IMG/VR virus record: IMGVR_UViG_2802429217_000005
Coordinates: 1 to 38,049 of that record
Length of the DNA: 38,049 bases
Strand: one strand, 5' to 3'
From: a virus
Lineage: Duplodnaviria > Heunggongvirae > Uroviricota > Caudoviricetes
Every line of letters begins with the position of its first letter. Position 1 is the stretch's first letter. Of this stretch, positions 3,011 through 33,415 are shown piece after piece. The notes beneath the pieces are model-generated. The model did no database searches. It was not told where the DNA came from and worked only from the letters and a program-made list of their open reading frames with translations. The position numbers were made by a program, and so were the translations under genes.

Positions 3011-3841
3011 ACCGGACTCCTCCTGCGATCCCTTCTGATACTGTCATCAGCATTACGTCATCCTCCGTCATGTCCGCCACATCCGGGGAAGTAGGGATAA
3101 CTTCATTCCCGTCCGGGCCAAAGCGGACACCTCCGGCAAGCCCTGCCGCTTTCTGCATCAGCACATCATCTTCAGGCTCTTCGTCAGCCTCACGCCGGTT
3201 CAGCAGACTGAAATCCAGCGGATGCATATCCGGATCGCTGAAAAACAGGCTGAGCACGGTGTACGTCAGCCCGGAAAAGTGCATATCCAGCAGAACATCA
3301 TGAAAATAATGGGTACTGTAAAAGCGGTGCCAGTCGGCATACTCCGTGGATGACATCCCGGCAAGCATGGCACGCCAGTCGGGTCGCCCCATCTCACGCG
3401 CCAGTTTCAGGGCAAAACTCAGCTCACCGTCGAACACTTTCCCGCAGAAACAGGCTCTGCGGGCCCGGCGTCCTCTGTCTGTTCAGGGGCATTATTCACC
3501 ACAAACTCATACATACCAGACAACCGGTACACCACGTTTTCAGCATGAGAAATTGCCTCTGTAGGCCAGGTGGTAAGCACTTCCTGCTCAATCTGTTTAA
3601 CGGCTTCATTCATGGACGGCATCTGCGTCTTCTGCGGATGGTTATGCCACAGGGACATCGCCACCAGAAACGCGCCGGTTCTGATGGCGTCTTCCACAGT
3701 AAACTTCCGGTTGCTGTCTGACTCCGCCTGTTCTGCCTGCCGTTTCATCAGGGCGAGATGCTCAATACGCTGCAGGGCTGACAGTTCAGAAAGCGTGACG
3801 GTCACGCCGTTATGTTCAAATGATTCGGTTTTCAGGAACAT
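3003..3841 (-). CDS. T: tail assembly chaperone G-T fusion made by programmed -1 ribosomal frameshift
   Basis: The -1 frame downstream of the GGGAAAG heptamer stays open to 3003 and encodes a lambda gpT-like sequence (FDGELSFALKLAREMGRPDWRAMLAGMSS...); the T frame has no start of its own apart from the track's GTG artefact. Confidence 0.75.
3419..3841 (-). CDS. G: tail assembly chaperone G
   Basis: 140-aa ORF MFLKTESFEHNGVTVTLSELSALQRIEHLALMKRQ... matching lambda gpG; ends ...AGKCSTVS with the slippery site in its last codons. Confidence 0.9.
   Translation of the reverse strand: MFLKTESFEHNGVTVTLSELSALQRIEHLALMKRQAEQAESDSNRKFTVEDAIRTGAFLVAMSLWHNHPQKTQMPSMNEAVKQIEQEVLTTWPTEAISHAENVVYRLSGMYEFVVNNAPEQTEDAGPAEPVSAGKCSTVS
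3437..3443 (-). promoter_or_regulatory. slippery heptamer G GGA AAG for the G to G-T -1 frameshift
   Basis: Plus-strand CTTTCCC at 3437-3443 is GGGAAAG on the minus strand, in phase X XXY YYZ with G codons 133-135 (Ala-Gly-Lys). Confidence 0.8.
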
Positions 3842-9334: not shown

Positions 9335-10916
9335 GTGGTGTTGTCTCCTCTTCCGGCCTGCGACTCTCCGCTATCTGCTGCTGATACGCCTGCGCTATCC
9401 ACACCGGACGTGAGAGTCCGGCTTTTTGCCGCTCAGCAGATTCCCTGACCTGCTGGCGGAAAATGTCCTGATAATCCTCGCCCATCAGCGCCAGCTCTTT
9501 CTCATACGTGCTCAGTCCGGCCTCAATGCGCATCACTGATTCCTGGACTTCCTTGAGCCCGTCAATGGCCATTCTTCCGGCACCAATCCACTCTGCCCGT
9601 GACCAGGCTGATCGCGCCTGATAAAAATCAAAACGTGCCCGTGGCGGACGAATAATCCCCCGAAGAAGTGCCTCTTCCAGCCAGCAGGAAAACATCTGCG
9701 TGGCCAGCCGGGCCGCAATAAATTTTCGCCGCCCCATAAAATAGCGCCACGACTCATTGGCGGAGGCGCGGGCACTTGAGTAACTGACCTTCGAGTAATC
9801 ACGGGACAACTGTTCGTAGGAAACGCCAAGACCGGCGGCGATATACCGCAGCAGCGCCTGTTCAAGCGCAGAAAATCCATTGTCTGAATCCTGCGCAGTC
9901 TGTAGTTTCAGATCATCACCAGGGAAAAGGTGCGGAATTTTGACACCGCCCAGTGTCACGTTATTCGTGTCATACCAGCTGGAGAACTTCTCCAGAATAT
10001 TAATAAGCGGATTATCCTTCTGCTCCTGTGGCGCGCCGGCGATATATTCAAAGGCCTTTTCGGTATCAAGTTCACTTTCAATCGTCGCTGCATACATCGC
10101 CTTCACTATGGCCGACTGAAGCTGTGTTGCCTGCAGGGAATCGAGCATCTTCAGCCGTTCCATGACGCTGTAAAACTGATTAGCCCCACGGGTCTGCCCG
10201 TCCTCCACCGGCTCGAAAATATGCAGCATGGCCGGACGCCCGGTGGGAAGTTCACGCGGGATCCGTTCCCATCGTCCACTACCAGAGAACGGAAAATCAT
10301 CCTCACAGATATGGTACGCGACGGCACGGCCATATCGATCGACCTCCACACCGGCCCGCAGAAAACGGTTCCCCATACCGTGTCCAGGCGTGTCCACCCG
10401 TTTCGGACTCACGGCTTTAAAACGCGTACGGAATAACTGCGTGGTTTCCGTATCCCAGACCGGCTGCACAAAGATTTCGCCGTTAAACGCATGAACGCCC
10501 ACACCTTCACGGATAAATTCCGTGAACGTGCGTTTTCCTTCCACGTCGATCTCGCCAAACATCCCTTCGGCGTATTCCGACCAGGCCGCCTCCACCTCAT
10601 CGACAAAGCTTTTTGCTGCGGTCTCCCGCATCCCCAGCCAGCGCCAGTTCGGACGGTAGCTGATCAGAAACATATGCCCGACAATGTGATCCTTATGCAG
10701 AGCCACCGCATTAGCCGCTATTCCGTTATTGCGCACCAGATCATCTGCCCGGGCATTCCCCAGACGCAACGCGGGCAGCAGGGCCGCATCGGCACTCTGC
10801 GCCGGTGGCAACCACTCAGCCATTTGCCCGCCAAATCCTGCACCGCCCCCGTTGTAGCTGAGACTCTCACGAAGCGGAACGCCGTTCACATCAATCAGGA
10901 CAGGCGTTCGTTTCAT
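9324..10916 (-). CDS. B: portal protein B
   Basis: 530-aa ORF between W and C, length and position of lambda gpB (533 aa). Confidence 0.9.
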   Translation of the reverse strand: MKRTPVLIDVNGVPLRESLSYNGGGAGFGGQMAEWLPPAQSADAALLPALRLGNARADDLVRNNGIAANAVALHKDHIVGHMFLISYRPNWRWLGMRETAAKSFVDEVEAAWSEYAEGMFGEIDVEGKRTFTEFIREGVGVHAFNGEIFVQPVWDTETTQLFRTRFKAVSPKRVDTPGHGMGNRFLRAGVEVDRYGRAVAYHICEDDFPFSGSGRWERIPRELPTGRPAMLHIFEPVEDGQTRGANQFYSVMERLKMLDSLQATQLQSAIVKAMYAATIESELDTEKAFEYIAGAPQEQKDNPLINILEKFSSWYDTNNVTLGGVKIPHLFPGDDLKLQTAQDSDNGFSALEQALLRYIAAGLGVSYEQLSRDYSKVSYSSARASANESWRYFMGRRKFIAARLATQMFSCWLEEALLRGIIRPPRARFDFYQARSAWSRAEWIGAGRMAIDGLKEVQESVMRIEAGLSTYEKELALMGEDYQDIFRQQVRESAERQKAGLSRPVWIAQAYQQQIAESRRPEEETTPRET

Positions 10917-11119
10917 AACCTCACTCCCAGCGGACGACGGCGACGCCGGGTTGTCCCCAGTACCGACTCCGCATCATTGATCGCCCGGTTAAGCTCATCC
11001 AGAGAAGCCGCCGTATATTCAATTCTGCGACCATCTTTCTGGACAGACACCACCCGTTTACCGGTTAATAAATCAAGGCGCGCCTGACGCAGCGCCTGCA
11101 GTTCAGCGACTGTAACCAT
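10913..11119 (-). CDS. W: head-tail joining protein W
   Basis: 68-aa [38 protein letters not shown]... matching lambda gpW in length and sequence. Confidence 0.9.
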   Translation of the reverse strand: MVTVAELQALRQARLDLLTGKRVVSVQKDGRRIEYTAASLDELNRAINDAESVLGTTRRRRRPLGVRL

Positions 11120-13031
11120 TCACTCCTCCGGACAGCTTCGCTGCCAGTTCTTTAAGGGTTGGCCGGGTCGTCTCTTCTTCCCGGGATTTTGCCAGTACAG
11201 CCAGATCAAGCTGCCAGCGTTGCACGGACACACGTAATGCCGCGTAGGCATACACCAGGCAGTCCAGCGCTTCGTTACGCCGCTTTTTGTTATCCCACAG
11301 CAGACGCATCTTTCCTTTTTCCCACTTCTCCACAAGCTCTTCCGCGACCAGTTGCTGCGCCTCTGTCTGCGAAAAAATCTCCGGATCATCAGGAAAACGG
11401 ATGGCATACGACGTGGCTTCATCCACAGGCGTGGGATCGGCTTTCATACGGGCATAGAGAATTTCTTTTGCGGTGTCCGTCCCCACTTCACACAGATACA
11501 CGCCCCGCTGATTGCGGGTTTTTGGCATGGTGATCACCGGCTTGCCATAGACAGATGCGCCTTTTATCGGCAGCACCCGGAAAACACCGTGTTTTTTTGA
11601 CCTCTGATAAACGATTTCGCCATCGATCCCCCCGATGTCCCAGCAGACACGAGAAATAGTCATTTCGGTTCCGTCTGCATGGCGGTATTTTTTGTTGATC
11701 GCCGCATCCACACGTAACAGCGTCTCTTCCTCATCGGGACGCCCCATAATGATGATTTTATCCACCAGAAAGGCTTCCTCTCCCGGAGCCCATCCCCAGA
11801 CATACATCTCAAAACGGTTTCGCTGCGAGTCAATGCCCGCCGTCAGATAAACCACCCGGGCAGGCACCGCCGCCGTGTAACGCACAACCTTATCCATCAG
11901 TACCTGGTGATCGAGTTTTTCGCCCACGGCCTCTTCCCAGGTCTCGCCCAGCGTGGTGTTCACAAAGGTTTTCAGGCCGTTGGGATCTTTCAGTGCATCC
12001 AGCCAGTCATAGACAATCTGTACCCATGTGGTGAACGGACTGTACGCCGTCCAGATATGGAAAGTGATGGAGCGCGGCGGCGGAATTTCATCACCCCGGG
12101 CGCTGAAAAACATCAGGCCGTCACGGGTCCACATGCCCGTGTTTTCACAGATCCACCGCCCGTTACTCTGGTCAAGCTCAGACTGATGGATCACACAGCC
12201 ATGATGCTCACAAAGGTAGAAAACACTCTCTGGCTTATTCTTCTCCCACTTAAGACCGAAAGGCGAGGCATCATCGCCAAATTTCAGATACTGCTCCTCC
12301 CCACAGTGCGGACAGGGCACATAAAAACGCATGAAGTGTGCCGACTCGTTAGCGGCTTTTTCGATCTGGCAGGAGCCTTTGATTTTAGGCGTCGAGCCGC
12401 GAATGGATTTTGGCCATACAGAGCCCTCAATACGTTTATCCCCCAGCAGGGTTGGCGAACCCTCTTTTTCAACATCCGGTTCGAACGAGGAAAGCTCGTC
12501 ATAACAGACCACATCCACGGATTTTTCACGGTAGTTTTTTGCTGCCGCACCACCCAGACACCAGAACCCCACACCGGAGGAAAAACGCTTCAGGGTGAGC
12601 GTATTATCGCGGTGTTTTCTTCCGAACCATGGAGCCAGCTCCAGCAATGCAGGAACATCCCTTATCGTTGGCTCAACATGAGATTTCATAAAATCTTCAG
12701 CAGCTGAGTCCGTGGGCTGAAAAAGAAGGCTGTTGCGTGATTTATGCTCAATAAAATAAGCCTCCACTCCCAGCAACATCTTTGTATAACCAACACGGGC
12801 AGATTTAATCAGGTTAACCGTGCGAATCAGATCGTTGCCCATACAGTTCATGATGCCAACCTGAAACGGCAGTGTTTCCCACCGCCCCGGGGTATAAGAC
12901 GACTCTTTAGGAAGGTAATAATGTTTATTGGCCCACTGAACTGTCGTCAGTGGAACAGGAATAATGAGAGATAAAAGCCCTGTAGCTATCGCACCGGCTG
13001 CATTAGCTGCCTTCTGCGCGTCTGAAATCAT
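11103..13031 (-). CDS. A: terminase large subunit A
   Basis: Long blocks identical or near-identical to lambda gpA ([63 protein letters not shown]); start placed at the ATG at 13031, giving a lambda-like ~29-nt overlap with Nu1. The N-terminal ~45 aa differ from lambda. Confidence 0.93.
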
Positions 13032-13551
13032 CGATCCACCCGCCCACGTTTTCACCGGCCTTAGCTGCAACATTGGAGGCTTTCGCGATTTCAGTTTTCA
13101 CCACATCAAGGTGTGATGGTGAAATGTCCGGATATTTACGCTGTAATGTCAACGGCACACGCACAAGTATCCCCGAAATCTCCTGTGCCACACGTTGCAG
13201 AATGAAGGTAAACAGTTCAGTTTCCAGCACTACTCCGTCTTCACGGGCATTTTTCAGTTCCTGCGCATCTGCCTGCGCTTTTGTGAGCCTGTAGCGTTCA
13301 TAGTCAATGGTGCCGGGTTGTAAATCTGACTCCGCTGCCGCACGCAAATCGTCCAGTTCTTTGCGGAGCTTTTCGTTTTCGATATCAGTTTCCCTCTGCG
13401 CATACCACTGAATTGCCATGGCAGTATCAAATACAGATTCAATGCCCTTACTACCTTTGGAGGCGCAAGGGAGTCCCTGAGACTGCCAGCGTTCAATCGT
13501 CCGCGGGTCCACGTTGAAAATTTCGGCAAGCCTCTTTTTATTAACCTTCAT
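13003..13551 (-). CDS. nu1: terminase small subunit Nu1
   Basis: 182-aa [31 protein letters not shown]... with an HTH and strong similarity to lambda Nu1 ([36 protein letters not shown]). Confidence 0.9.
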
Positions 13552-13726
13552 GAAAACAACCCATTATCAAATACAAGGCCCGACATGAAAACGCCAGAAA
13601 AAGGCATTTTCGGACACTTTCATGTCGGACCTTTACGGATGAAATATTAAAAAAAACAAAAAGTTATATTCGAGAAGTACCGACACGATTTTCCCTGAAA
13701 AATTTTCATAAATAGTGAAAAACCGC

Positions 13727-13738
13727 GAGGTCGCCGCC
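13727..13738. other. cosN cohesive-end site (12-nt overhang); cosB presumably lies between it and nu1
   Basis: Plus-strand AGGTCGCCGCCC is GGGCGGCGACCT on the minus strand, the lambda left cohesive end, followed by CTCGCGGTTTTTCACTATTTATGAAAATTTT matching the lambda cos flank; about 187 bp from the nu1 ATG, as in lambda. Confidence 0.8.
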
Positions 13739-14299
13739 CCGTAGCCTGCCGGATCACCGGAAAGGACCCGCAAAACCGAGAATAAGTATCAATACTATTT
13801 GTGATTTGAATGATGCACATCATTGAAACGCCATTCATCCATATACCAGCAGCATTCGGTGTTGCACTTCGTAACTCTGTGACTACGGTTATAAAAGCAT
13901 TGGCAACTTTTGCCACCGGCAAGTCTTCAATGGATTTCCCCTGCCGGTTTTTTATTTTCGTCGATGCATAACATTGCATTTACATCAATAGCAGCTATTG
14001 TCATTAGTATGTTACATCGATGCATGGGTGGTATTGGCGGTCTTCGCCGACCGGTTCTGTGTAGCTCCCTATGACCGGTTTTTTATTTCTAAGATTACAG
14101 AAGCCCTTCACTGTATGAAGGGCTTCTGTAACTCTTCTTACTTAGTAATTTTCGCACCTTCCGGTATTTCCATGAGTTGAGAAAACCTCATACTATCCGA
14201 CAATAATCATCAATATACGATAAAGACATCTGACCAGATTGCAGTATTAAAAGCACTCATGCAGACTACGCCCCTCATATCATATACAAGGGGATACTG

Positions 14300-14710
14300 A
14301 TGGCTCAGGTTGCCATTTTTAAAGAAATATTTGATCAAGTGCGGAAAGATTTAAACTGTGACCGGTTTTACTCTGAACTAAAACGCCACAATGTCTCACA
14401 TTACATTTACTATTTAGCCACAGGTAATATTCACATTGTATTTGAGAGCGATAACACGGTGTTAATAAAAGGTTTCCATGATGTTATTCATGTTAGCTTT
14501 TGCAGAGACACGCGACTTATAGAAACTTACCTTCATAAGTTGAAATCAAGAGAAATCACATTTCATGAATACAGGGTAAATCTGGCTAAAGCTGGAGTTT
14601 TCCGATGGGTTACAAATATCCACGAACACAAAAGATATTACTATACCTTTGACAACTCATTATTGTTTACCGAAAGCATCCAGAACACGACTCAAATTTT
14701 TCCACGCTAA
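14300..14710 (+). CDS. DUF1398-family moron protein (YbcV-like)
   Basis: 136-aa [43 protein letters not shown]...; recalled as the YbcV/DUF1398 family found next to bor in lambdoid prophages; opposite strand to the late genes. Confidence 0.6.
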
Positions 14711-14934
14711 ACCATAACGTCCGGTTTGATCCGCCTCAGTAGCCGGCACTCCCACACAGGAGTTACCAGTCGGTGCTGTGGCCATAGTTAATCTGGGTAT
14801 ACAGTAAAGATACAGCACATCTGGCATACTTTAATAAACATTAACAATATGAGATTTCAACTCATTGTTTAGGTTTTGTTTAAATTTCCACAAATACGAT
14901 GCACCAAACTTAAAAACACAACGGGAATCACACG

Positions 14935-15228
14935 ATGAAAAAAACGCTACTCACTTTCACACTGGCGCTGCTTATCTCTGGATGTGCTCAACAGACGTTT
15001 ACAGTTGAAAACAAACCTACAACAGTAACACCGAAGGAAACCATCACTCATCATTTCTTCGTTTCAGGAATTGGTCAGAAGAAAACTGTCGATGCAGCCA
15101 AAATTTGTGGTGGCGCAGATAAAGTTGTTAAAACTGAAACCCAGCAAACATTCGTAAATGGATTGCTCGGTTTTATTACTTTAGGCATTTATACTCCGCT
15201 TGAAGCTCGGGTCTATTGCTCACAATAA
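14935..15228 (+). CDS. bor: Bor lipoprotein (serum-resistance moron)
   Basis: 97-aa ORF MKKTLLTFTLALLISGCAQQTFTVENKP... with a signal peptide and lipobox (LISGC); near-identical to lambda Bor from memory. Confidence 0.9.
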   Translation: MKKTLLTFTLALLISGCAQQTFTVENKPTTVTPKETITHHFFVSGIGQKKTVDAAKICGGADKVVKTETQQTFVNGLLGFITLGIYTPLEARVYCSQ

Positions 15229-15235
15229 TTACATG

Positions 15236-15265
15236 CGCTGCCCATCAATATGGGCAGTTTTATTT
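15236..15265 (+). terminator. candidate intrinsic terminator after bor
   Basis: Hairpin CTGCCCAT-CAAT-ATGGGCAG (8-bp stem) followed by TTTTATTT, directly after the bor stop. Confidence 0.6.
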
Positions 15266-15658
15266 ACACTGTTAACCCCTTGGTTGTTTCAGCCGCCGGG
15301 GTTTTACTTGTTATTCACTGGTATGAGTACGACATCTGGCCATTTCATTCCGGGCTTTACTGTCGCCGCGACAGATGCAACGCATCGTATCGCCGTTCAG
15401 CGTAGTGATATAAGCCTCATCCGTTTTCTCTACCTGCAAACATGAAATATTCCCGTTCCGGCAATACTCAATTTTTGCTGCCAGATGGGTATTACGCGGG
15501 TAAAACTCCATACGATACATATCCCCCCAGGACATGCACTTCCTCAACCTGACGACCATCTTCAGTTACCGTAATCTTTTTCAGTGCGTACATACGTACC
15601 TCCGTTCTTTCGTTTTTTGAACAATAAAAAAGCCACCGAAGTGACCTTTTCGATGAGT

Positions 15659-16204
15659 TTATAAACCAACGCGCTCTTTCATCCAGCCATAGACAAACGA
15701 CTCGTTAGCCTCGCGTTTCTCTGCCAGCGCCAGATAACGCTCACCCTGCGTACAGTTCAGGGCTTTCACCAGTACCAGTTCGCCATCCCTGCCGCGATTT
15801 TTCAGATAAGAACGTAACGCATTAATGGTTCGCGGCCCGATCCCCCCGTCTGTAACTATGTCCGGATACAGCATTCCCTTCTGATTAAACACATTCAGCC
15901 AGCGCTGAAGCATTTTTGTGGCTACCGACGGCCCCATGTTTACCCCGGTATCACACAGTTCTGCAGCAATATCAGGAGACAGGTTTGCCACCTGGTCAAA
16001 ACGAGGTCCATACCAATAGTCCGCCTCAAGGATTTCCAGAGCCTGCCCGCGGCTCAAATCACGCATATCACCACGGTAACCATGCGCGCGCGCCACTTTT
16101 TCAGTAATTCCCCACTTCGTCGCTCCGCCTGTATCGTCAGGATGACTGACATAACCCCCCTCTTTTCCGAGGATTTCATCAAAAATTTCATCTCTCGATT
16201 TCAT
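15659..16204 (-). CDS. endolysin, glycoside hydrolase family 108-like with C-terminal peptidoglycan-binding domain
   Basis: N-terminal motif SRDEIFDEILGKEGGYVSHPDDTGGATKWGIT typical of GH108 muramidases (TtsA-like) as recalled; sits directly after two small membrane protein genes; start set to the ATG at 16204 (the track starts at a GTG). Confidence 0.7.
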   Translation of the reverse strand: MKSRDEIFDEILGKEGGYVSHPDDTGGATKWGITEKVARAHGYRGDMRDLSRGQALEILEADYWYGPRFDQVANLSPDIAAELCDTGVNMGPSVATKMLQRWLNVFNQKGMLYPDIVTDGGIGPRTINALRSYLKNRGRDGELVLVKALNCTQGERYLALAEKREANESFVYGWMKERVGL

Positions 16205-16205
16205 A

Positions 16206-16484
16206 TCAGCCACTCAGGAAAGCAAAAATTTTTGAAACATTACCGCGCGCACGCACTACCATGACACCAAATACCAGGTTCAGCATCACCACCAGCCAGT
16301 CTGCCGGCAACGGATGACCACAGAGATAACTTAACGGCGTTATCGCATACAACAGCATCAGACACCAGGCGCACCACGATATCAGCGGTTTGTGTCGTGA
16401 CTCTTTTCTGCGGTAGAAAAAAAGCGTCAGCACGATAACCGTACATAACGCCGCATTCAGTAATCCTGGAAGATTATTTGTCAT
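16206..16484 (-). CDS. small 3-TM membrane protein of the lysis cassette (holin or antiholin-like)
   Basis: About 92 aa from the ATG at 16484 with three hydrophobic segments; GGAGG upstream; lies between the putative holin and the endolysin. Confidence 0.5.
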   Translation of the reverse strand: MTNNLPGLLNAALCTVIVLTLFFYRRKESRHKPLISWCAWCLMLLYAITPLSYLCGHPLPADWLVVMLNLVFGVMVVRARGNVSKIFAFLSG

Positions 16485-16866
16485 TACCACCACCTCCTCC
16501 ACGCTGACGGGAGAACAGACCGGATACCAGTGATGTAATCTCCTGCTGGTGGATGAATGACAGGACTTTTACTGAGAGCACCGACACCAGGACCGCACAC
16601 AACGCATCAACGGAAGCACTGTTAAACCCAATACGTTCCGCCATGTAACCGGCCACACCACGGGCCCCAAGCACACCAACAATAAAGGACACCAGAAAAT
16701 GTGCAGCCACACGCCAGGCTGAAAGTGTCTGCGGCATTGTTGCCACAAATAACGCACCAGCGAACGCACCAAATACAATCCCGAAATCCGTCCCGGTAAA
16801 CAGCCCGAATACCGTCGCCCCGCCGAGCGCCACAGCAGTGCCGGAACCGGATAAGGGTTCAGACAT
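16474..16866 (-). CDS. putative holin
   Basis: About 130 aa from the ATG at 16866 (AGGAG 8 nt upstream); Gly/Ala-rich hydrophobic segments and a charged C-terminal tail; first gene of the lysis cassette. Confidence 0.55.
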   Translation of the reverse strand: MSEPLSGSGTAVALGGATVFGLFTGTDFGIVFGAFAGALFVATMPQTLSAWRVAAHFLVSFIVGVLGARGVAGYMAERIGFNSASVDALCAVLVSVLSVKVLSFIHQQEITSLVSGLFSRQRGGGGGNDK

Positions 16867-17065
16867 ATTTATTCTCCTGTAAATAAAAAGGACCATCAGC
16901 GGCCCCGTAACTGACATTTTATTAACGTTTGAAGATATGGATATTTATCAGGGTTTACCGTTTTCTGAACCCTGGATATGTTAAGCATTCAGCCCGCCAG
17001 TGGTGGGACGCTGGCTCATCATAGAGAAAGAGGGATGGCTGATTACCTCTGATCAGGGAAATTAC

Positions 17066-17335
17066 ATGCAGTTTTTACATAAAAGAATGCATTTAAATGC
17101 AGGAGATACGGTAGTGGTTGACTGCTCTCATCAGTGCAATATTTTGCTGATGACAGATACAAACTTTAATAACTACCGCAACGCAAGAAGCTTTCATCAT
17201 CACGGTGGTGGCGGTTTTTTTCAGAGATTACCGGCCCACCTTCATGTCCCGCATTCAGGTTACTGGAATATTACAATTGATTTAGGAGGCGGAAGTGCAG
17301 CTATTCGGCACTCCATTTCCGTCATCCCAGCATAG
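17066..17335 (+). CDS. hypothetical protein
   Basis: ORF on the strand opposite the late genes; start placed at the ATG at 17066 (MQFLHKRMHLNAGDTVVVDCSHQC...); contains HHHGGGGFF; no family recognised with confidence. Confidence 0.35.
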   Translation: MQFLHKRMHLNAGDTVVVDCSHQCNILLMTDTNFNNYRNARSFHHHGGGGFFQRLPAHLHVPHSGYWNITIDLGGGSAAIRHSISVIPA

Positions 17336-17700
17336 CAACTCGCCTTTAGCCTGAGTAAATGCGTCCTCAAGGACGGCAACGAGTCGCAGTTGCGTGCCGT
17401 CCTTTACACAGCGTGTGCAGCAATACCTTCAGAACTTTCATTATGCCGAGCTCATACAATTTCACCATTTTGTTCAACTACAACGCTCATAATTTTCTTA
17501 CACTTTTTTAATAAACCACACCAATAACAACCATCACCGATACCTTTTGTATGCTGTTATTTTGCATTACGGTGTAACGGCAAGAGCCCCCTCCCCGCCC
17601 ACCAACACACCATCAGCCAGTACCGACATCAACCGCCCAGTGAAATCCACTGCCACTACCAGAAACAACAGGATGGCAGCCAGCACAAGGCCCGCACTTT

Positions 17701-18126
17701 TCACAGATACTGCTCCAGTGGTAACTGAAGCGCCTGTGCAATTTTCTTGAGCTGCGCTTCTTCATCCGGACCAATGCCATCCTGATCAGCGATATCCAGA
17801 CAGAGGCAAAGCACGTCAACCGCCTCAGTTGTCCCCGCCACATCAGCCAGCTCACGTAATGCATGCGCATTCGCACTACGCGGTGACGCTTCATAACGGG
17901 CGCGGATATTGGCGCTCATCTGGGCAATCTCACCAGAGAACGGTGCAAAAGCAGGAAGCGCAGCAATGGTTTTCTCCAGTACTGCGATTTCTTTTGCGTC
18001 GCAGGTGCCGTCGGCATATGCAATGGAATATGCGCCCCAGACGGTCGCCTCCACCGCATCACGGTTCTCCATCTTCTTCACTTCAGTGATGGCCTTGCGG
18101 GTTTTCTTTTTGAAAATACCTAACAT
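17701..18126 (-). CDS. TerB-like (tellurite-resistance TerB family fold) protein
   Basis: 141-aa ORF; pattern AYADGTCDAKEIAVLEKTIAALP ... LCLCLDIADQDGIGPDEEAQLKKIAQAL resembles the TerB/DjlA N-terminal family as recalled. Confidence 0.45.
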   Translation of the reverse strand: MLGIFKKKTRKAITEVKKMENRDAVEATVWGAYSIAYADGTCDAKEIAVLEKTIAALPAFAPFSGEIAQMSANIRARYEASPRSANAHALRELADVAGTTEAVDVLCLCLDIADQDGIGPDEEAQLKKIAQALQLPLEQYL

Positions 18127-18307
18127 CGTGACTTTTCCTTTGCGTAGACGAGCCTGCGCCAGATGGTTACCAGCCCACAGTGAAAGTCACACTGACAATC
18201 CCGTAAGCACCTCCTGAAAGGCTCTGTGTTTTTGATGTGCGCCAGGTGTGGCTCAGATACAAAAAAAGCTCGCCGTAGCGAGCTAACAGAAAATATGAAG
18301 CATGTTT

Positions 18308-18586
18308 TTATCCACGAAGCATGACAATGAACTCATCCATGCCTACACGGCTGGCTATCTCGTTGTATTCCTCAACAAGAGCCAGCAATTCTGAATTAGC
18401 AGCCATGAACTCATCAAAAACCTTATGGATGGCATCACTGTTTAATAAAACAATGTTCTTTCCTGAAAGGCGATCAGGGGTAGAAAATATAACTGTTAAA
18501 CGACTAAAGGCCCTGGCTCGTTCAGCATTAACATCCTCAATACGCTGCAACAAGCTGGAGCACCTGGAAATATCATCAATATTCAC
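18308..18586 (-). CDS. hypothetical protein
   Basis: 92-aa ORF starting at a GTG with AGGAG 5 nt upstream; no family recognised. Confidence 0.4.
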   Translation of the reverse strand: MNIDDISRCSSLLQRIEDVNAERARAFSRLTVIFSTPDRLSGKNIVLLNSDAIHKVFDEFMAANSELLALVEEYNEIASRVGMDEFIVMLRG

Positions 18587-19105
18587 TCTACTCCTGCCAT
18601 CTGGATGATAATCATTTCACGGAGAGAAGCACTCAGAAGTACCACTGAAGTATAACTGGTGACCAGCTGCTTACACATCTGTTGCCATCCTGCTGATGAT
18701 AAGTCGATATTAACCCTTCTGTCTATAAACGAAACAAAGGATAAGTTCAGGTTTTAAACACACTGCCAGGATAAAGTATTGTATACAGTATAGAAGAGCG
18801 TTATTGAATGACATAAAAAACCAGACCTAATCCCTTATCCGGAATATATATCAAATAAACGGGGAAAATGTATTAAGATGGCGTTCCTATTCTCTCCATC
18901 CCTGATGTCCACGTAACTCGTTATAGAATCAGAACGCCATCTGAATACACACAAAAAAGCTGGCTTCACACCCTCCTGCATGTGTGAACGCAGTGCCCGA
19001 CCACGTGCTTTCGCAACCAGCGAAAATCAGTTTTAAATACCGAAAAACGATAAGAATATATCAGAACTTCCAAGCATCCTGCTTGGCTTAGATATTAATC
19101 GAAGA

Positions 19106-20191
19106 TTAGCTCCTGTTCTTATCTAATTGTGCATTTCGCAATTTATCGTTCAGCACCAATATTTCACCAACTGTTTGTTCAAAACGCCCGGACTCAAGTT
19201 CAACCCCAATCGTGCGACGCCCCAATCCCATTGCTGCTTTTATTGTTGCCCCCGATCCCATAAAAAAATCCGCAACCACATCCCCCGGACGACTGCTGGC
19301 AGAAATTATCTGACGCAACATATCCGCCGGTTTTTCGCAGGGATGCTTACCCGGATAATACTGTACGGGCTTATGCGTCCAGACATCCGTATAAGGAACG
19401 GCGGCCGATACAGAAAAATAACGCCGCAGAGATTTGTATTCCTCAAGCAGACTGGCATATTGCCGGTTCAGTTCACTGTATGTGCTGACCAGCAGTTGGT
19501 GTGGCGTTGCCAGCTCCCCACGCTGGTGTTTTTCTTCTGCAACACGCGCGAACAGCGCCTGCAGTTTTCTGTAATCAGCTTCGTTCGGTAACTGCCACTG
19601 ACTGGTACCAAACCAGTGCGACACCATGTTTTTCTTTCCGGTGGCTTCCGCTATCTGTTTGGACGTTATTCCCAGTGATTCACGCGCATCACGAAAGTAA
19701 AAAATCAGCGGGGCCATGACGTGTTGTTTAAGCTCGCGCTCCTTTGCCGCATAGCCGGCATTTTTTGGCTGATATGGCCCCTGATAATGTTCGGCAAACA
19801 GAATGCGCTCTGTTGCCGGGAAATACGCCCGCAGGCTTTCTTTGTTGCACCCGTTCCAGCGTCCGGACGGCTTCGCCCAGATAATGTGGTTCAGCACATT
19901 AAAGCGCTCACGCATCATGATTTCGATATCAGATGCCAGGCGATGACCACAAAACAGGTAAAGACTTCCGGCAGGCTTCAGTACCCGCCAGAACTGAGCC
20001 AGACACTGGTCCAGCCATTTCAGGTAATCATCGTCTCCCTTCCACTGGTTATCCCAGCCCTCGGGCTTCACTTTAAAATATGGCGGGTCTGTGACTATAA
20101 GATCGACAGAGTTTTCCGATAAGGTCTGGATAAATTCCAGGCAATCGGTGTTGATTAACTCACAACTGGATATTTTTACAGTATCAACCAT
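19106..20191 (-). CDS. orphan DNA methyltransferase (N6-adenine/N4-cytosine class, DPPY motif)
   Basis: 361-aa ORF with motif IV DPPY near the N-terminus (LIVTDPPYF) and the AdoMet-binding motif near the C-terminus (DFFMGSGAT); no adjacent restriction endonuclease gene recognised. Confidence 0.85.
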   Translation of the reverse strand: MVDTVKISSCELINTDCLEFIQTLSENSVDLIVTDPPYFKVKPEGWDNQWKGDDDYLKWLDQCLAQFWRVLKPAGSLYLFCGHRLASDIEIMMRERFNVLNHIIWAKPSGRWNGCNKESLRAYFPATERILFAEHYQGPYQPKNAGYAAKERELKQHVMAPLIFYFRDARESLGITSKQIAEATGKKNMVSHWFGTSQWQLPNEADYRKLQALFARVAEEKHQRGELATPHQLLVSTYSELNRQYASLLEEYKSLRRYFSVSAAVPYTDVWTHKPVQYYPGKHPCEKPADMLRQIISASSRPGDVVADFFMGSGATIKAAMGLGRRTIGVELESGRFEQTVGEILVLNDKLRNAQLDKNRS

Positions 20192-20331
20192 AGATCAATA
20201 AGCACTTCTCTGATAGGCTCATACCGCTTTTGCGCAAAGCGGATGGGCCTGAGGTTTGCTTGTGACCCCGATTCATGAGCAGATGGCTGGCAGGTGCCGC
20301 TAACACCCACCAGCCGCCCATTACCACAAAG

Positions 20332-20355
20332 TAAAAAGCCTTCACTGCGGAAGGC
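20332..20355 (-). terminator. candidate intrinsic terminator between the winged-helix gene and the methyltransferase gene
   Basis: On the minus strand: GCCUUC-CGCAGU-GAAGGC followed by UUUUU, overlapping the stop of the 65-aa ORF. Confidence 0.5.
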
Positions 20356-20539
20356 GTCTGTAACAACCGAACTGATAATCTGCCAGACCCGCCATAACAA
20401 GCTGGGTCAGTATTAACTGACAGCGTTCGCGTGAAAGGTAAGTATTCTGCGCAATTTCCCCAACTGTTGCCGGTTCAGTGACGCTTAATTCATTAAACAC
20501 CACTCTGGCTGTTTCTGTCATATCCTGCTGTTTTAGCAT
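20342..20539 (-). CDS. small putative winged-helix DNA-binding protein
   Basis: 65-aa ORF; ATVGEIAQNTYLSRERCQLILTQLVMAGL resembles a MarR-like winged-helix recognition region; family not recognised. Confidence 0.4.
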   Translation of the reverse strand: MLKQQDMTETARVVFNELSVTEPATVGEIAQNTYLSRERCQLILTQLVMAGLADYQFGCYRRLPQ

Positions 20540-20712
20540 GTCTTTTTCTCTTTATTGGTTAACGTGACATACCAATAACTCTTGTCGAAGAAGCCAGCAA
20601 GCTGAAAGACCGGTATTAATAACCACCTGCACATTTTATGTACCGAACCATTTTTCTGGCATAAAAAACCTCTCAATGGCGGGCGGTAAAAATCTTTGTT
20701 ACTCAAGAAATT

Positions 20713-21426
20713 TTAACGCACTCTGACTGTATTAATTTCAAAATCATTAATATTTCCGCTATTAAATATAACGAATTTCTTACTCCCACTCCTGTATGAT
20801 TTCGATAACACCAGACGATCATCATAACGCGCAATAATGTAATACCATACATTCTCATAGTGGATCACCTGATATTCCCTCTTAAACTGTGGTTTGTACC
20901 AACCGGCAATAAGAGAGAATGCCCAGAAATAAATCATAAACCCAGCCATCATGAACTCAATTCGGTGATGGCGAATAAAAGACATTTCCGAAAAACATTT
21001 GACTGAAACAAGTCTTCTTCCAGACCTGACAAAAAGCGTGATTGTAAAGGCAGCAAGAATGCAGAAAATCAGTACATCTGGCTCAACATGCTGATGAATT
21101 ACCGAAAACTCCAGAACAGGTGGAATAAAAAGCAGCAATATCGCGAGAAAAAGCCGGATAAAACTCAAATTTTGTATATTGCGCTTTTGTTTTATGCCCA
21201 AAAAGAAAACAATACCAACTCCCCATCCAATAAGGAATATAACGATAACTGTCACAGCATAAAACAAACTTCGTGCAACATCATCGACACCAGCCCCGAC
21301 AACCCACCATGGAAAGCCATAGTAAAATGAAGTACCCCATCCATAGAAATAAGCGCTTCCCCATCCTAGACAGCCCATATAAGCAACAAAAAGTGAAGAG
21401 TTTCTGAGCAGAGCACTGTCATTCAT
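20713..21426 (-). CDS. multi-pass membrane protein of unknown function (late-region moron)
   Basis: 237-aa ORF with about five hydrophobic Trp/Tyr-rich segments; visibly AT-rich DNA; first gene downstream of the candidate tR'. Confidence 0.55.
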   Translation of the reverse strand: MNDSALLRNSSLFVAYMGCLGWGSAYFYGWGTSFYYGFPWWVVGAGVDDVARSLFYAVTVIVIFLIGWGVGIVFFLGIKQKRNIQNLSFIRLFLAILLLFIPPVLEFSVIHQHVEPDVLIFCILAAFTITLFVRSGRRLVSVKCFSEMSFIRHHRIEFMMAGFMIYFWAFSLIAGWYKPQFKREYQVIHYENVWYYIIARYDDRLVLSKSYRSGSKKFVIFNSGNINDFEINTVRVR

Positions 21427-21565
21427 AGTAACACCATTAACAACTCAAAAATATCAACACATATTACATAACAAATTGGATTCCATGCAGTCAAGGGGCG
21501 TCATTGATGGAGAAAGTATTGGCACAATCGTCATCACGTTTAATGTCTATGCCATTTTTTGGGGG

Positions 21566-21593
21566 GATAAAAAACCCGCTCGGTCGCGGGTTT
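21566..21593 (-). terminator. candidate tR'-type intrinsic terminator downstream of Q
   Basis: Minus-strand AAAACCCGC-GACCGA-GCGGGUUUUUUA: GC stem flanked by an A-tract and a 6-U tract. Confidence 0.6.
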
Positions 21594-21639
21594 TACTAGC
21601 TTTGCCATCACGTATAAAAACAGCAAAATATCAGATTTA

Positions 21640-21675
21640 CACGAAATATATGCGTTTTAATCTACTTTTGCAATA
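21640..21675 (-). promoter_or_regulatory. candidate late promoter pR'
   Basis: On the minus strand: -35 TTGCAA (21667-21672), 18-bp spacer, -10 TATATT (21643-21648); begins 9 nt after the Q stop and about 50-75 nt upstream of the terminator. Confidence 0.35.
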
Positions 21676-21680
21676 CTTTG

Positions 21681-22346
21681 CTATGAAAATGCCGCCTTTT
21701 GTTTTGAACGTGTTCTCTCCACTAACAATAAAGCTTCACTATCCAGCCGATGAAAAATGTGTTTCATTGCAACCCAGTGACCAGTAAATGTCTTGGACCA
21801 GTTTTTGGTTGTTACTCCCACCAGTAACGCCAGTTCCTGGTATTCATAACCTTCCCCACCAAAAAGCTCAGCTTTTACCGCCTGCGCCGCCAACCAGATC
21901 AACGTCTTCAGGCGCACCAGAGTTTTTCCTGCAATTTTTCTGGTACCGGATTGAGCATTAAATTCAGTCCACGCCCACTGCGTTATCGCGATCTTATACT
22001 CCCAGCAAATGCTACCGCTGTAACACCACAGCACCCACGCCTTCTGATGCTCTTCAAGAGACAGAACGGCGCGTCGCCATGATGATGTCGAAAACTCAAC
22101 CGGACTGACCAGGGCAATTGATGAACCTTTCGCCAGCGATTGCTTTCCCGGGATCGGTGGATTATCCAGCGTTACTATTTTTCCAGTGACCTTATCGCGG
22201 TACCGGATTTTTTTACGTCTGTAACGCCCTGTATTGAACATGGCATTCTCCTGCCAGGCTTCAAGCTGACCTTTTGTTGCTCCACTCAAATCAGCGGTGG
22301 CGATCGTGAGCTGCTCACGCACAAACTGTAAATACTGGTTATTCAT
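21681..22346 (-). CDS. putative late antiterminator Q (non-lambda Q family)
   Basis: 221 aa from the ATG at 22346, which overlaps the rusA stop; position directly after RusA and before a promoter-terminator pair matches Q; family identity is from recall only. Confidence 0.5.
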   Translation of the reverse strand: MNNQYLQFVREQLTIATADLSGATKGQLEAWQENAMFNTGRYRRKKIRYRDKVTGKIVTLDNPPIPGKQSLAKGSSIALVSPVEFSTSSWRRAVLSLEEHQKAWVLWCYSGSICWEYKIAITQWAWTEFNAQSGTRKIAGKTLVRLKTLIWLAAQAVKAELFGGEGYEYQELALLVGVTTKNWSKTFTGHWVAMKHIFHRLDSEALLLVERTRSKQKAAFS

Positions 22347-22702
22347 GCGCACTCCAGTTCTGTGATTTTTATCCCCAGCCGACCACCGGGAATAACCTGA
22401 CCGCGCATAATATTAACTTCATCAAACTGCTCATCGTCGATAAGCAGTCCCGCATGTGTCAGTGCATCCAGTGGTGCTTTCAGAATATTGTCCAGGTCAC
22501 GACGGCGCTTATCCGGCGGCTCTGCAATAATTTTTATTGCCAGCCTTCCGGACAGATTTAATTTCAGTCGCTGCTGGCGAACAATAAGCGCCACATCCCG
22601 GCGATAACGCTCCCCTGCTTTTGATACAAAATATGTGCTGCCACGACGACGCCAGTAGGTATTCACCGTCGGAGGGTAAGGCAAAACAAATTCTATCCCC
22701 AT
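22343..22702 (-). CDS. rusA: Holliday junction resolvase RusA
   Basis: 119-aa ORF with the RusA signature (LPYPPTVNTYWRRRG ... PDKRRRDLDNILKAPLDALTHAGLLIDDEQ); AGAGG Shine-Dalgarno. Confidence 0.9.
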   Translation of the reverse strand: MGIEFVLPYPPTVNTYWRRRGSTYFVSKAGERYRRDVALIVRQQRLKLNLSGRLAIKIIAEPPDKRRRDLDNILKAPLDALTHAGLLIDDEQFDEVNIMRGQVIPGGRLGIKITELECA

Positions 22703-22714
22703 CAGTAACCTCTT

Positions 22715-23764
22715 TTATCCGAGTACGCCCGTTGCAAAGGCGTGATCAAGAAAACGAAAAATTAAATCAACCTGAGAACCATGCTTTTCTTCGAACGCCT
22801 GCGGATCTGCATGAAGTTCGTTGTGATGTTCCCGGCACAGCGGCAACGTAAAAATATCGTGGGCTTTTGTCCCCATTCCGCCCTGACCGTGACCAATCAG
22901 GTGATGGGGATCGTCTGCTGGCTTACAACAACATGTACACGGCTGTGTCTTTACCCAGCGCGTGTATTTCTCATTCACCCAGCGGCGACGTTTAGGCCGC
23001 TTCATGAATGATTCCGGTGACTCCGGATCAACGGCAATGCTGACCACCGTCTTTTCCTGTGGTGGGTTCTGTTGCTGGTGGGCGTGAGGCAACAGCGCAA
23101 AATTTTTTGTGCGCTGCTTCAGTATGCTGGTGGCTGTCTGTTCTCCCGGTATGATGTCACTCTCGCGGTATACTGAGTGGATTTTTTCCGCGCGTAACCC
23201 CAGAGAACGATGTAATACTGCCTCCGGTATTGCGTCCGCTACCTGATTGCAGAGCGCCCACCAGGATAATTCAGCCAGCGATAATTCCCGTTCTTGTGCA
23301 CCACTTATTGCGTGACGTATGACGTCAATCATCCAGGCTGTCAGATTTTGTTGAGCAAGCTGCCCGAGTGATTCGGATGTCTGGTCGCGCAGCTGGTTGT
23401 CGCAGTGCCAGCACAACACCATTGCGCCGGTACCGTAACGATGTATGACGGTTTCACTGTGGTGATAGTCTCCATGAGGCCACTGGCAGGATTTAACATG
23501 ACGCAGGAGCCAGTCAGACAGTGCGCCAGCGCCGCCAGCAGCACGAATCACACGCTCATCGCTGAAAAACGGCAGCAATGTTTTATCTTCCGCCAGCGGC
23601 TGGCGAACGGCAGGAACGACTCCGGACGGCAGACCGCGCATGTTTTTCGGTTCCTGCTCCACCAGCACCCTGCCGTTATGGAATACCTGCATGGATTCAC
23701 GGCCTGGCTTAACGATAACCAGCCCAAGTTCCGGTACCAGAACAGGTCGAAGTAATACCCGCAC
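22715..23764 (-). CDS. DUF968-family protein (YdfU-like) with C-terminal Cys/His cluster
   Basis: 349-aa ORF; C-terminal QPCTCCCKPADDPHHLIGHGQGG ... LPLCREHHNELH; resembles prophage YdfU as recalled. Track start is a GTG; an ATG alternative is at 23692. Confidence 0.6.
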   Translation of the reverse strand: MRVLLRPVLVPELGLVIVKPGRESMQVFHNGRVLVEQEPKNMRGLPSGVVPAVRQPLAEDKTLLPFFSDERVIRAAGGAGALSDWLLRHVKSCQWPHGDYHHSETVIHRYGTGAMVLCWHCDNQLRDQTSESLGQLAQQNLTAWMIDVIRHAISGAQERELSLAELSWWALCNQVADAIPEAVLHRSLGLRAEKIHSVYRESDIIPGEQTATSILKQRTKNFALLPHAHQQQNPPQEKTVVSIAVDPESPESFMKRPKRRRWVNEKYTRWVKTQPCTCCCKPADDPHHLIGHGQGGMGTKAHDIFTLPLCREHHNELHADPQAFEEKHGSQVDLIFRFLDHAFATGVLG

Positions 23765-23765
23765 G

Positions 23766-24044
23766 TTACCTCCAGATCCGTTGCTGGAATGTGCGGGACT
23801 GACGCGGTGGGCGTTCGGAATAAGGAAGCCTGACGTAGATTATCCAGTGACGATAATCGGGGCTGAGGGCTTTCTTAATCTCGTATCCGCGTCTGCGGTA
23901 GCAATGAATTAACCATTCAGCCTGTTCTTCAGTGCATGGAGAATGCTGGAACCAGTCCGATTTGAATGCGTGAAAACGCCGTCCGCACCTGCTGGCAAAG
24001 ACGGCAGAATCATCAGAATTGTGTAATTTGGTATCGTGCGCCAT
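23766..24044 (-). CDS. hypothetical protein
   Basis: About 92 aa from the ATG at 24044 (MAHDTKLHNSDDSAVFASRCGRRFH...); directly upstream of the DUF968 gene; no family recognised. Confidence 0.35.
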   Translation of the reverse strand: MAHDTKLHNSDDSAVFASRCGRRFHAFKSDWFQHSPCTEEQAEWLIHCYRRRGYEIKKALSPDYRHWIIYVRLPYSERPPRQSRTFQQRIWR

Positions 24045-24503
24045 CGGTTGTCTCTGCTGGCGCAGCAGGTGCCAGTTGTTCAGGCTGGCGTATAAAGTAT
24101 AAATAAACTGGTTCCAGTGTAAAGCCCCTACATTAATGAAATAAAAATCAAACAACAGATTGCTGGGATAAAACACAACGCTTATTATTAAAAGCGATTA
24201 GATAAATTAAATTTTAATGTTATGCAAATTTGCCAGATCACCATAATATCTCGTTTGAAACCACCGAAATAACAACCATATCAATATTGATTATGTTAAA
24301 GCGAGTAAATATGGAAAACAACAAATCTGCACATTACGCTCCTTTTTTATCTGTGATACTTTTTGTTTTATGCTGTGTGTGGGCATTATTTTTATAAAAA
24401 TATTTACAGATAAAATAAACCCGCCGAATCAAGTTAAGTGTGGGTGCATTGAGGATGCCTGACTCATCAGAGGTGGCGAGGGATTTCTCCCTCGCCAGGT
24501 CTC

Positions 24504-24659
24504 TTACTCCTCAGGTTCGTAAGCTGTGAAGACAGCGACCTCCGTTTGGCTGGTTCGGATTCGTACCTCACAGAGATCTTTCCTCGTTACCAGTGCCGTC
24601 ACAATGACGGTTAAACAGATGACGATCAGGGCGATTAACATCGCCTTTTGCTGCTCCAT
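24504..24659 (-). CDS. hok: Hok-family type I toxin (HokD/RelF-like)
   Basis: 51-codon ORF missed by the >=60-aa track: MEQQKAMLIALIVICLTVIVTALVTRKDLCEVRIRTSQTEVAVFTAYEPEE, near-identical to E. coli HokD as recalled; AGGAG 9 nt upstream. Confidence 0.85.
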   Translation of the reverse strand: MEQQKAMLIALIVICLTVIVTALVTRKDLCEVRIRTSQTEVAVFTAYEPEE

Positions 24660-24841
24660 AGCCTGCTTCTCCTAGCCTTTCGGCACGTAAGAGGCTAACC
24701 TACATTTGTGAGACATAGATTGGGCCTCAGATTAATGTTAAGCGTCTTGCAGGACGCTTAATGTTAACTGTGCTTTTCTTTATCTGCCTTTTGGTGTTCA
24801 TGCCTGAGACAGATAGCCTCAATCACCCGCAGCGATTTTAC

Positions 24842-33357: not shown

Positions 33358-33415
33358 TTTTCTGGTGACGTTTGGCGGTATCAGTTTTACTCCGTGACTG
33401 CTCTGCCGCCCTTTT
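33358..33415 (+). ncRNA. dicF: DicF small RNA
   Basis: TTTCTGGTGACGTTTGGCGGTATCAGTTTTACTCCGTGACTGCTCTGCCGCCC followed by TTTTT matches the recalled 53-nt DicF sequence and its terminator. Confidence 0.8.

Follow-up and report, generated by a model that had tools for sequence, protein, structure and literature searches.

A probable late regulatory region of the phage 82 type, with a short terminated leader, in a lambdoid Escherichia coli prophage

Late promoters and terminated leaders in described phages

The Q antiterminators fall into three families, one of which, PF06323, is the Q82 family (PMC9388147). In phage 82, the Q-binding element (QBE) lies between the -35 and -10 hexamers of the late promoter, and Q82 benefits from NusA only as long as the nascent RNA is short (PMC4914094). 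The 82pR' transcript starts with AAA, followed by a discriminator-like GCC at +15 to +17 and an AT-rich stretch at +18 to +25, and the polymerase pauses at +25/+26, where the RNA end is a U. The pause element itself is closer to consensus than that of lambda and includes an extended -10 motif, and each change to A within +15 to +17 reduced the pause half-life by half (PMC5001585). Short terminated late-promoter transcripts have been noted for phages 21, phi80, 82 and P22, and in Stx1 and Stx2a phages such a transcript, StxS, is made in lysogens directly after Q and can act as an Hfq-dependent regulator (PMC7547250). The StxS phages encode a 144-aa Q and have a pR'-tR' distance of 258 nt; RNase E shortens the transcript to 74 nt, and in some strains StxS lies ahead of the stx genes. 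IsrJ, from the Salmonella prophage Gifsy-1 (Rfam RF01393), was detected as a 74-nt RNA with its own promoter and a 5' end mapped by primer extension (PMC2330248). Its transcription in lysogens was high in every condition tested, and an invasion phenotype has been reported for it.

The window, i.e. the whole 38,049-nt stretch of DNA analyzed here, carries a module on its minus strand consisting of the end of a Q gene, a promoter and a terminator. With a probability of about 0.9, we consider the region at 21569-21683 to be the late regulatory region (pR'-QBE-pause element-tR') of a phage-82-type lambdoid E. coli prophage. It shares with phage 82 the Q family (~ 74-77% protein identity), the -35 TTGCAA, the 17-nt spacer, the -10 TATATT, the transcribed sequence from +1 to +16 (AAATCTGATATTTTGC) and the U at +25. 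It differs in that the window Q is six codons shorter, leaving the -35 outside the reading frame instead of inside it, 3 of the 17 spacer bases are changed, +17 is T and not C, the leader is ~ 70 nt versus ~ 78 nt in phage-82-like phages, and hairpin 1 and the terminator have other sequences, the terminator being of the kind found in the PPompW prophage (CCCGC...GCGGG). The phage 82 record, X92588, ends at the Q stop and supplies only the -35 and the spacer, and therefore the published 82pR' landmarks and two phages with Q proteins 94-97% identical to Q82 (L003 and L091) served as proxies for the phage 82 leader. The logic of lambda pR'-qut-tR' is the same, with a constitutive promoter that includes the QBE, a sigma-70-dependent pause, an intrinsic terminator and Q-dependent readthrough. 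The locus is nevertheless not of the lambda type, as lambda Q belongs to the unrelated PF03589 family, the lambda pause is at +16/+17 as opposed to a predicted +25 here, and the lambda 6S leader is 194 nt long as opposed to ~ 70 nt. The features of the module and its surroundings are as follows.

21681-22346 (minus): Q antiterminator gene, 221 aa from the ATG at 22346 (Pfam PF06323, tblastn, alignment)
21657-21680 (minus): former Q C-terminal codons, CAA AGT ATT GCA AAA GTA GAT TAA, now untranslated (tail comparison)
21668-21673 (minus): -35 hexamer TTGCAA of pR' (promoter scan; invariant in the 11-member alignment and in all variants compared)
21651-21667 (minus): spacer AAGTAGATTAAAACGCA, 17 nt, putative QBE (analogy with 82Q; 14 of 17 bases as in the 82 type)
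21645-21650 (minus): -10 hexamer TATATT (promoter scan; conserved in the variants)
21638 (minus): predicted transcription start +1, the first A of AAA (AAATC), accurate to ~ 2 nt (analogy with 82pR' and IsrJ)
21622-21633 (minus): predicted sigma-70-dependent pause element (register with 82pR', conservation)
21633-21632 (minus): TG at +6/+7
21630-21625 (minus): -10-like TATTTT at +9 to +14
21624-21622 (minus): discriminator-like GCT at +15 to +17 (GCC in relatives and phage 82)
21621-21614 (minus): AT-rich stretch GTTTTTAT at +18 to +25
21614 (minus): U at +25
21613-21614 (minus): predicted pause positions +25 (U) and +26 (register with 82pR')
21600-21628 (minus): hairpin 1 of the leader RNA, +11 to +39 (folding)
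21569-21594 (minus): intrinsic terminator tR', stem AAAACCCGC/GCGGGUUUU, loop GACCGA, T6 tract at 21574-21569
21569-21638 (minus): predicted terminated leader RNA, ~ 70 nt (folding; sub-threshold isrJ match)
11103-21426 (minus): start of the late operon, with accessory genes, then holins, endolysin and terminase subunits

The Q gene, its lost tail and the promoter

The first-pass annotation had called the upstream gene Q-like, and this is borne out by a match to PF06323 with E=2.7e-88 that covers 216 of the 220 profile positions; among the Q families in Pfam, the protein matches this one only. By tblastn, its identity is 76.6% with phage 82 Q (73.8% when counted over the full 229 aa) and 64.7% with Gifsy-1 AntQ, and it aligns end to end with its relatives without a frameshift. 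A sequence search of the PDB with the window Q gave no match, nor was there a relative with a solved structure. The gene call also draws on the annotation of STEC005. The ATG overlaps the stop codon of rusA (ATGA), and the longest open reading frame, starting from a GTG at 22352, would give 223 aa. Upstream, the order is a DUF968/HNH protein, RusA and then Q, which are neighbors in the lambdoid nin region.

The gene stops at TAG 21683-21681, six codons ahead of the usual stop of the family. In phage 82 and most relatives, translation runs through the tail region, ending in ..QQNIAKLD or ..KQSVAKVD before the stop, and the -35 and the first part of the spacer lie within the last Q codons, ..ATT GCA AAA CTG GAT TAA. 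The former tail codons of the window still hold both these elements, with the ancestral TAA at 21659-21657, and owing to the early TAG the -35 now lies just outside the Q reading frame. The premature TAG is common to the 15 loci of the clade of the window, in part of which the old TAA has itself mutated, while two independent lineages, L047 and L056, have a TAA one codon after the position of this TAG (loci behind the comparison: L017-L028, L047, L048, L056 and L097). Judging from these alignments, the end of the Q reading frame is truncated three times independently. The recurrence at almost the same place suggests that the C-terminal tail (..IAKxD) is dispensable, as it seems to be from sequence, and the truncations, together with the mutated old TAA in part of the TAG clade, suggest that the tail is kept as DNA signals and not as protein. 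Since it lacks the last six residues of Q82, the 221-aa Q is only predicted to be active.

The promoter, TTGCAA-17-TATATT, was listed by the promoter scan with 9 of 12 hexamer matches, on the minus strand and 7 nt after the Q TAG. The first-pass annotation had named the same hexamers just after the Q-like stop; its spacer of 18 nt and its gap of 9 nt should read 17 and 7 nt, respectively. Promoter-like hexamer pairs as such are at chance level, with 8 found against 8.9 expected from shuffles in 6 kb, and the call rises above chance because the pair, together with the first 11 transcribed bases, is conserved across relatives. The spacer at 21651-21667, which by analogy with 82Q is the putative Q-binding element, keeps the GATTAAA core in spite of its 3 changes. 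With +1 placed at 21638, all the 82pR' landmarks fall in register, the sole deviation being the T at +17; the mapped 5' end of IsrJ lies ~ 2 nt upstream of the base equivalent to 21638 (PMC2330248; Rfam alignment). A promoter-like match on the plus strand at 21602-21629 was considered as a paQ-like antisense promoter and rejected, as its sequence is that of the pause element and a hairpin arm read on the opposite strand and it has a chance-level score.

The predicted pause element contains the extended -10-like motif TGaTATTTT at +6 to +14. TGATAT is invariant in the alignment, and the hexamer takes the form TATTTT, TATCGT or TATGCT across the leader types, such that the pattern TATnnT is kept in all of them; the retention of TG, of A at position 2 and of T at position 6 is what a site for sigma-70 region 2 requires. 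The base at +17 is C in phage 82 and most relatives, and the T of the window is found also in the STEC005 prophage and in two other lineages (L033 and L047). Taken with the 82pR' mutation data, the T at +17 may make pausing somewhat weaker here, so that a modest effect is possible.

The leader, its relatives and the genes beyond

A strong intrinsic terminator had been proposed ~ 55-75 nt further on, and one is found at 51-76 nt past the -10, supported by folding and by a strict custom terminator scan. That scan gave 7 sites in the window on both strands, against 0.16 expected from dinucleotide shuffles, and only two of these, tR' and 18283-18261, are on the minus strand. The tR' site is missing from the list of a general terminator scan with greedy stem extension, because the extension swallows the T tract. 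The second minus-strand site, at 18261-18283 (GCTCGC-TACG-GCGAGC-T7), is located between two accessory ORFs inside the late operon, where Q-modified polymerase would need to read through it. Folding of the 70-nt leader gave -21.2 kcal/mol (z = -3.4), a stability that none of 200 shuffles reached; in its layout, the 5' end is single-stranded and is followed by a hairpin, then an A-rich linker and the terminator with its U tail. Every leader type allows a hairpin to be drawn at +11 to +39, with the 3' part of the -10-like element as its 5' arm. In the MAFFT alignment, hairpin 1 had no compensatory changes and a covariation score below that of shuffles, since the leader types use different registers, and shuffles within each type gave z values of only -0.3 to -3.3. 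We therefore do not claim hairpin 1 as a conserved functional hairpin.

For comparison, we gathered phage 82, Gifsy-1, PhiR47_2, PPompW prophages and phages of Enterobacter, Klebsiella, Salmonella and Cronobacter, and added 4 loci from a search of genome contigs with the Q protein and 80 IMG/VR loci from an alignment-based scan, giving ~ 96 related loci that reduce to ~ 40 unique variants. All the variants share one architecture: TTGCAA, a spacer of 17 nt (18 nt in one), a -10 of TATATT or CATATT, a conserved start, a modest hairpin and the terminator. Hardly any variation is seen between -35 and +14, and among 11 divergent relatives that were aligned, the -35, most of the -10 and +1 to +11 (AAATCTGATAT) do not vary at all, despite their Q proteins differing from that of the window by 10-48%. 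Counted from +1 through the T tract, the leader is 68-78 nt long in 36 of the 40 unique variants, with the terminator at an equivalent distance; the L003 and L091 phages have the same layout with a 78-nt leader. Longer leaders occur in two Klebsiella phages (~ 97 nt) and in one further case (~ 167 nt). The leader is thus very short next to the 194 nt of lambda, as the first-pass annotation had it, but the length is a trait of the family and implies nothing unusual.

A search of 5,426 complete E. coli genomes gave the module in 1,393 of them. Megablast against phage genomes gave ~ 89% identity over a stretch that begins inside rusA and takes in Q and the leader, stopping at query base 830-832, i.e. 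21571-21569 of the window, at the end of the T tract. That the homology ends at the terminator suggests that Q, promoter, pause site and terminator travel as one module while the cargo differs, and by this comparison 21569 is a mosaic joint at which accessory genes are inserted. Decay is seen in some of the E. coli and Shigella copies (L013-L016, L066, L074 and L085), where the pause element is changed to TGATAC, 1 nt is deleted past the -10 and the terminator stem has a mismatch. Such copies probably belong to cryptic prophages.

The closest genome is STEC005 (L097), in which the leader is identical to that of the window. Positions 20274-24089 of the window and 10318-14127 of STEC005 form a 3.8-kb block of 95% identity, comprising DUF968, rusA, Q, the leader and the genes for the 237-aa and 65-aa proteins. 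Past this block, STEC005 has an HTH gene, three tRNAs and stx2k, while the window has a DNA methyltransferase (20191-19106) at that place and no stx, and carries no tRNA anywhere along its length. The order on the minus strand of the window is a 237-aa phrog_1521 protein, a 65-aa winged-helix (wHTH) protein, the DNA methyltransferase, two holins and an endolysin, and the small and large terminase subunits. With Q upstream and the late genes downstream, the promoter-terminator pair sits where a late promoter should. The first gene past the terminator, at 20713-21426 (minus), encodes the 237-aa protein, which is hydrophobic by eye and has a phrog_1521 match and no Pfam match. A TTGACT ~ 65 nt upstream of its ATG (21455-21495, minus) might belong to a promoter of its own, for which no acceptable -10 was found. 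Elsewhere, the window carries a hok/sok toxin-antitoxin locus at 24504-24826 (minus), with a 51-aa Hok-like ORF and an Rfam sok match of 81.8 bits, and a DicF RNA at 33360-33411 (plus; Rfam, 76.7 bits), both typical of Qin-like prophages.

No Rfam family reaches its threshold in the leader region, where the best matches, isrJ and isrK, are both sub-threshold; the isrJ match at 21641-21570 has 22.1 bits (E=0.34), where the gathering score is 37. Neither Esr41 (RF02676) nor the Pas sRNAs, weighed as possible identities of the leader, proved to match. The isrJ model scores 100.3 on Gifsy-1, 72.7 on ENT1, 62.6 on CobraSix and 57.2 on ST11-VIM1phi8.1, and in the latter three, two Enterobacter phages and a Klebsiella phage, the above-threshold match is directly after a Q82-family gene. 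The isrJ-related loci (Rfam RF01393) are:

L002 (Gifsy-1), 3017-3121
L006, 1409-1482
L010, 1406-1479
L011, 1409-1487

IsrJ has the same TTGCAA-17-TATATT promoter as the window, the same first bases (GUAAAUCUGAUAU) and the same two-hairpin layout, with 74 nt versus ~ 70 nt, whereas from +12 on the sequences of the two RNAs are unrelated. In Gifsy-1, isrK, orf45 and anrP lie between Q and IsrJ, whereas the leader of the window directly follows Q. The 82-type promoter and start, together with the place after Q82-family genes in other phages, hint at an origin of IsrJ as an orphaned 82-type pR'-tR' leader, as it appears to be from these comparisons, a reading that is not stated in the IsrJ literature examined. 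With StxS, the leader has no detected sequence similarity; the likeness is one of position, the window-identical leader of STEC005 being upstream of stx2k.

Proposed mechanism, alternatives and significance

By homology with phage 82 and IsrJ, the region would work in the standard Q82 manner, and our understanding of Q antitermination is unchanged by it. Sigma-70 RNA polymerase would start constitutively at ~ 21638, after which sigma region 2 would rebind the extended -10-like motif and the complex would scrunch and pause at ~ +25/+26. Without Q, the polymerase would escape the pause, terminate ~ 45 nt further on and release the ~ 70-nt RNA. Q, made from the early rightward operon, would bind the QBE in the promoter spacer, engage the paused complex with the help of NusA and travel with the polymerase, which would run past tR' and the terminators beyond it to transcribe the accessory, lysis and morphogenesis genes. 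The pR'/qut/tR' arrangement put forward in the first-pass annotation is supported by the Q82 family, the 82pR' landmarks, the terminator and the late operon downstream, and the phage 82 late region agrees in the -35, the spacer length, the -10 and +1 to +16.

It could be argued that the unit is a free-standing sRNA gene of the IsrJ or StxS kind, which would chiefly regulate host mRNAs in trans in the lysogen, Q antitermination having become secondary or been lost. IsrJ does have the same promoter and 5' end away from its Q gene, along with its invasion phenotype, StxS is a precedent for a terminated pR' transcript acting as an Hfq-dependent regulator (PMC7547250), and the layout of the leader described above is sRNA-like. 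We consider this unlikely all the same, since the unit occupies the standard position, with an intact-looking Q immediately upstream and a full late operon downstream, the isrJ score is sub-threshold, and the conserved bases are DNA signals (-35, -10 and pause element) while the rest of the RNA is replaced between phages. Moreover, an sRNA role and a late-switch role are not exclusive, and the former could be a second function of the leader. Along these lines, the ~ 70-nt leader may be an E. coli counterpart of IsrJ or StxS, a stable and possibly Hfq-associated trans-acting sRNA whose 5' 'seed' (AAAUCUGAUAU) would be frozen by its second job as the DNA signal for pausing and Q loading; this is a tentative proposal, to which we give a minor chance.

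Another possibility is that the locus is a relic whose switch has been put out of action by the truncated Q and the C-to-T change at +17, leaving a prophage unable to turn on its late genes. The premature TAG does remove six residues of Q, +17 is indeed T, and some of the cryptic-prophage relatives, with TGATAC, the 1-nt deletion after the -10 and the stem mismatch, are clearly decayed. Yet the rest of Q aligns end to end without a frameshift, the TAG allele is found in 15 loci with near-identical truncations twice more independently (L047 and L056), and GCT recurs in two other lineages (L033 and L047). In addition, the stx2k region of the STEC005 prophage opens with an identical Q-leader block, and the lysis and packaging gene set of the window is apparently complete, all of which makes the loss of the switch quite improbable. 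A chance juxtaposition of promoter-like and terminator-like sequences with no function, for which it may be said that promoter-like hexamer pairs are equally frequent in shuffled sequence, is effectively refuted by the near-invariance of the elements across Escherichia, Salmonella, Enterobacter and Klebsiella phages, by the homology to the experimentally dissected 82pR' and the detected IsrJ RNA, and by a terminator far above shuffle expectation.

Under the preferred reading of a phage-82-type late regulatory region, the value of the finding is mainly one of annotation, in that it fixes the start of the late operon and joins Q, promoter and terminator into one conserved module, which ends at a mosaic joint with accessory genes inserted beyond, stx2k among them in related strains. 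If the leader were also a counterpart of IsrJ and StxS, STEC005-like strains would make the same RNA from the promoter that drives stx2k, and IsrJ would be an orphaned 82-type late-promoter leader. For specialists, the interest is that the end of the Q reading frame also serves as the -35 and the QBE of the very promoter on which Q acts, and that IsrJ, a virulence-associated sRNA of Salmonella, appears to be the same kind of leader.
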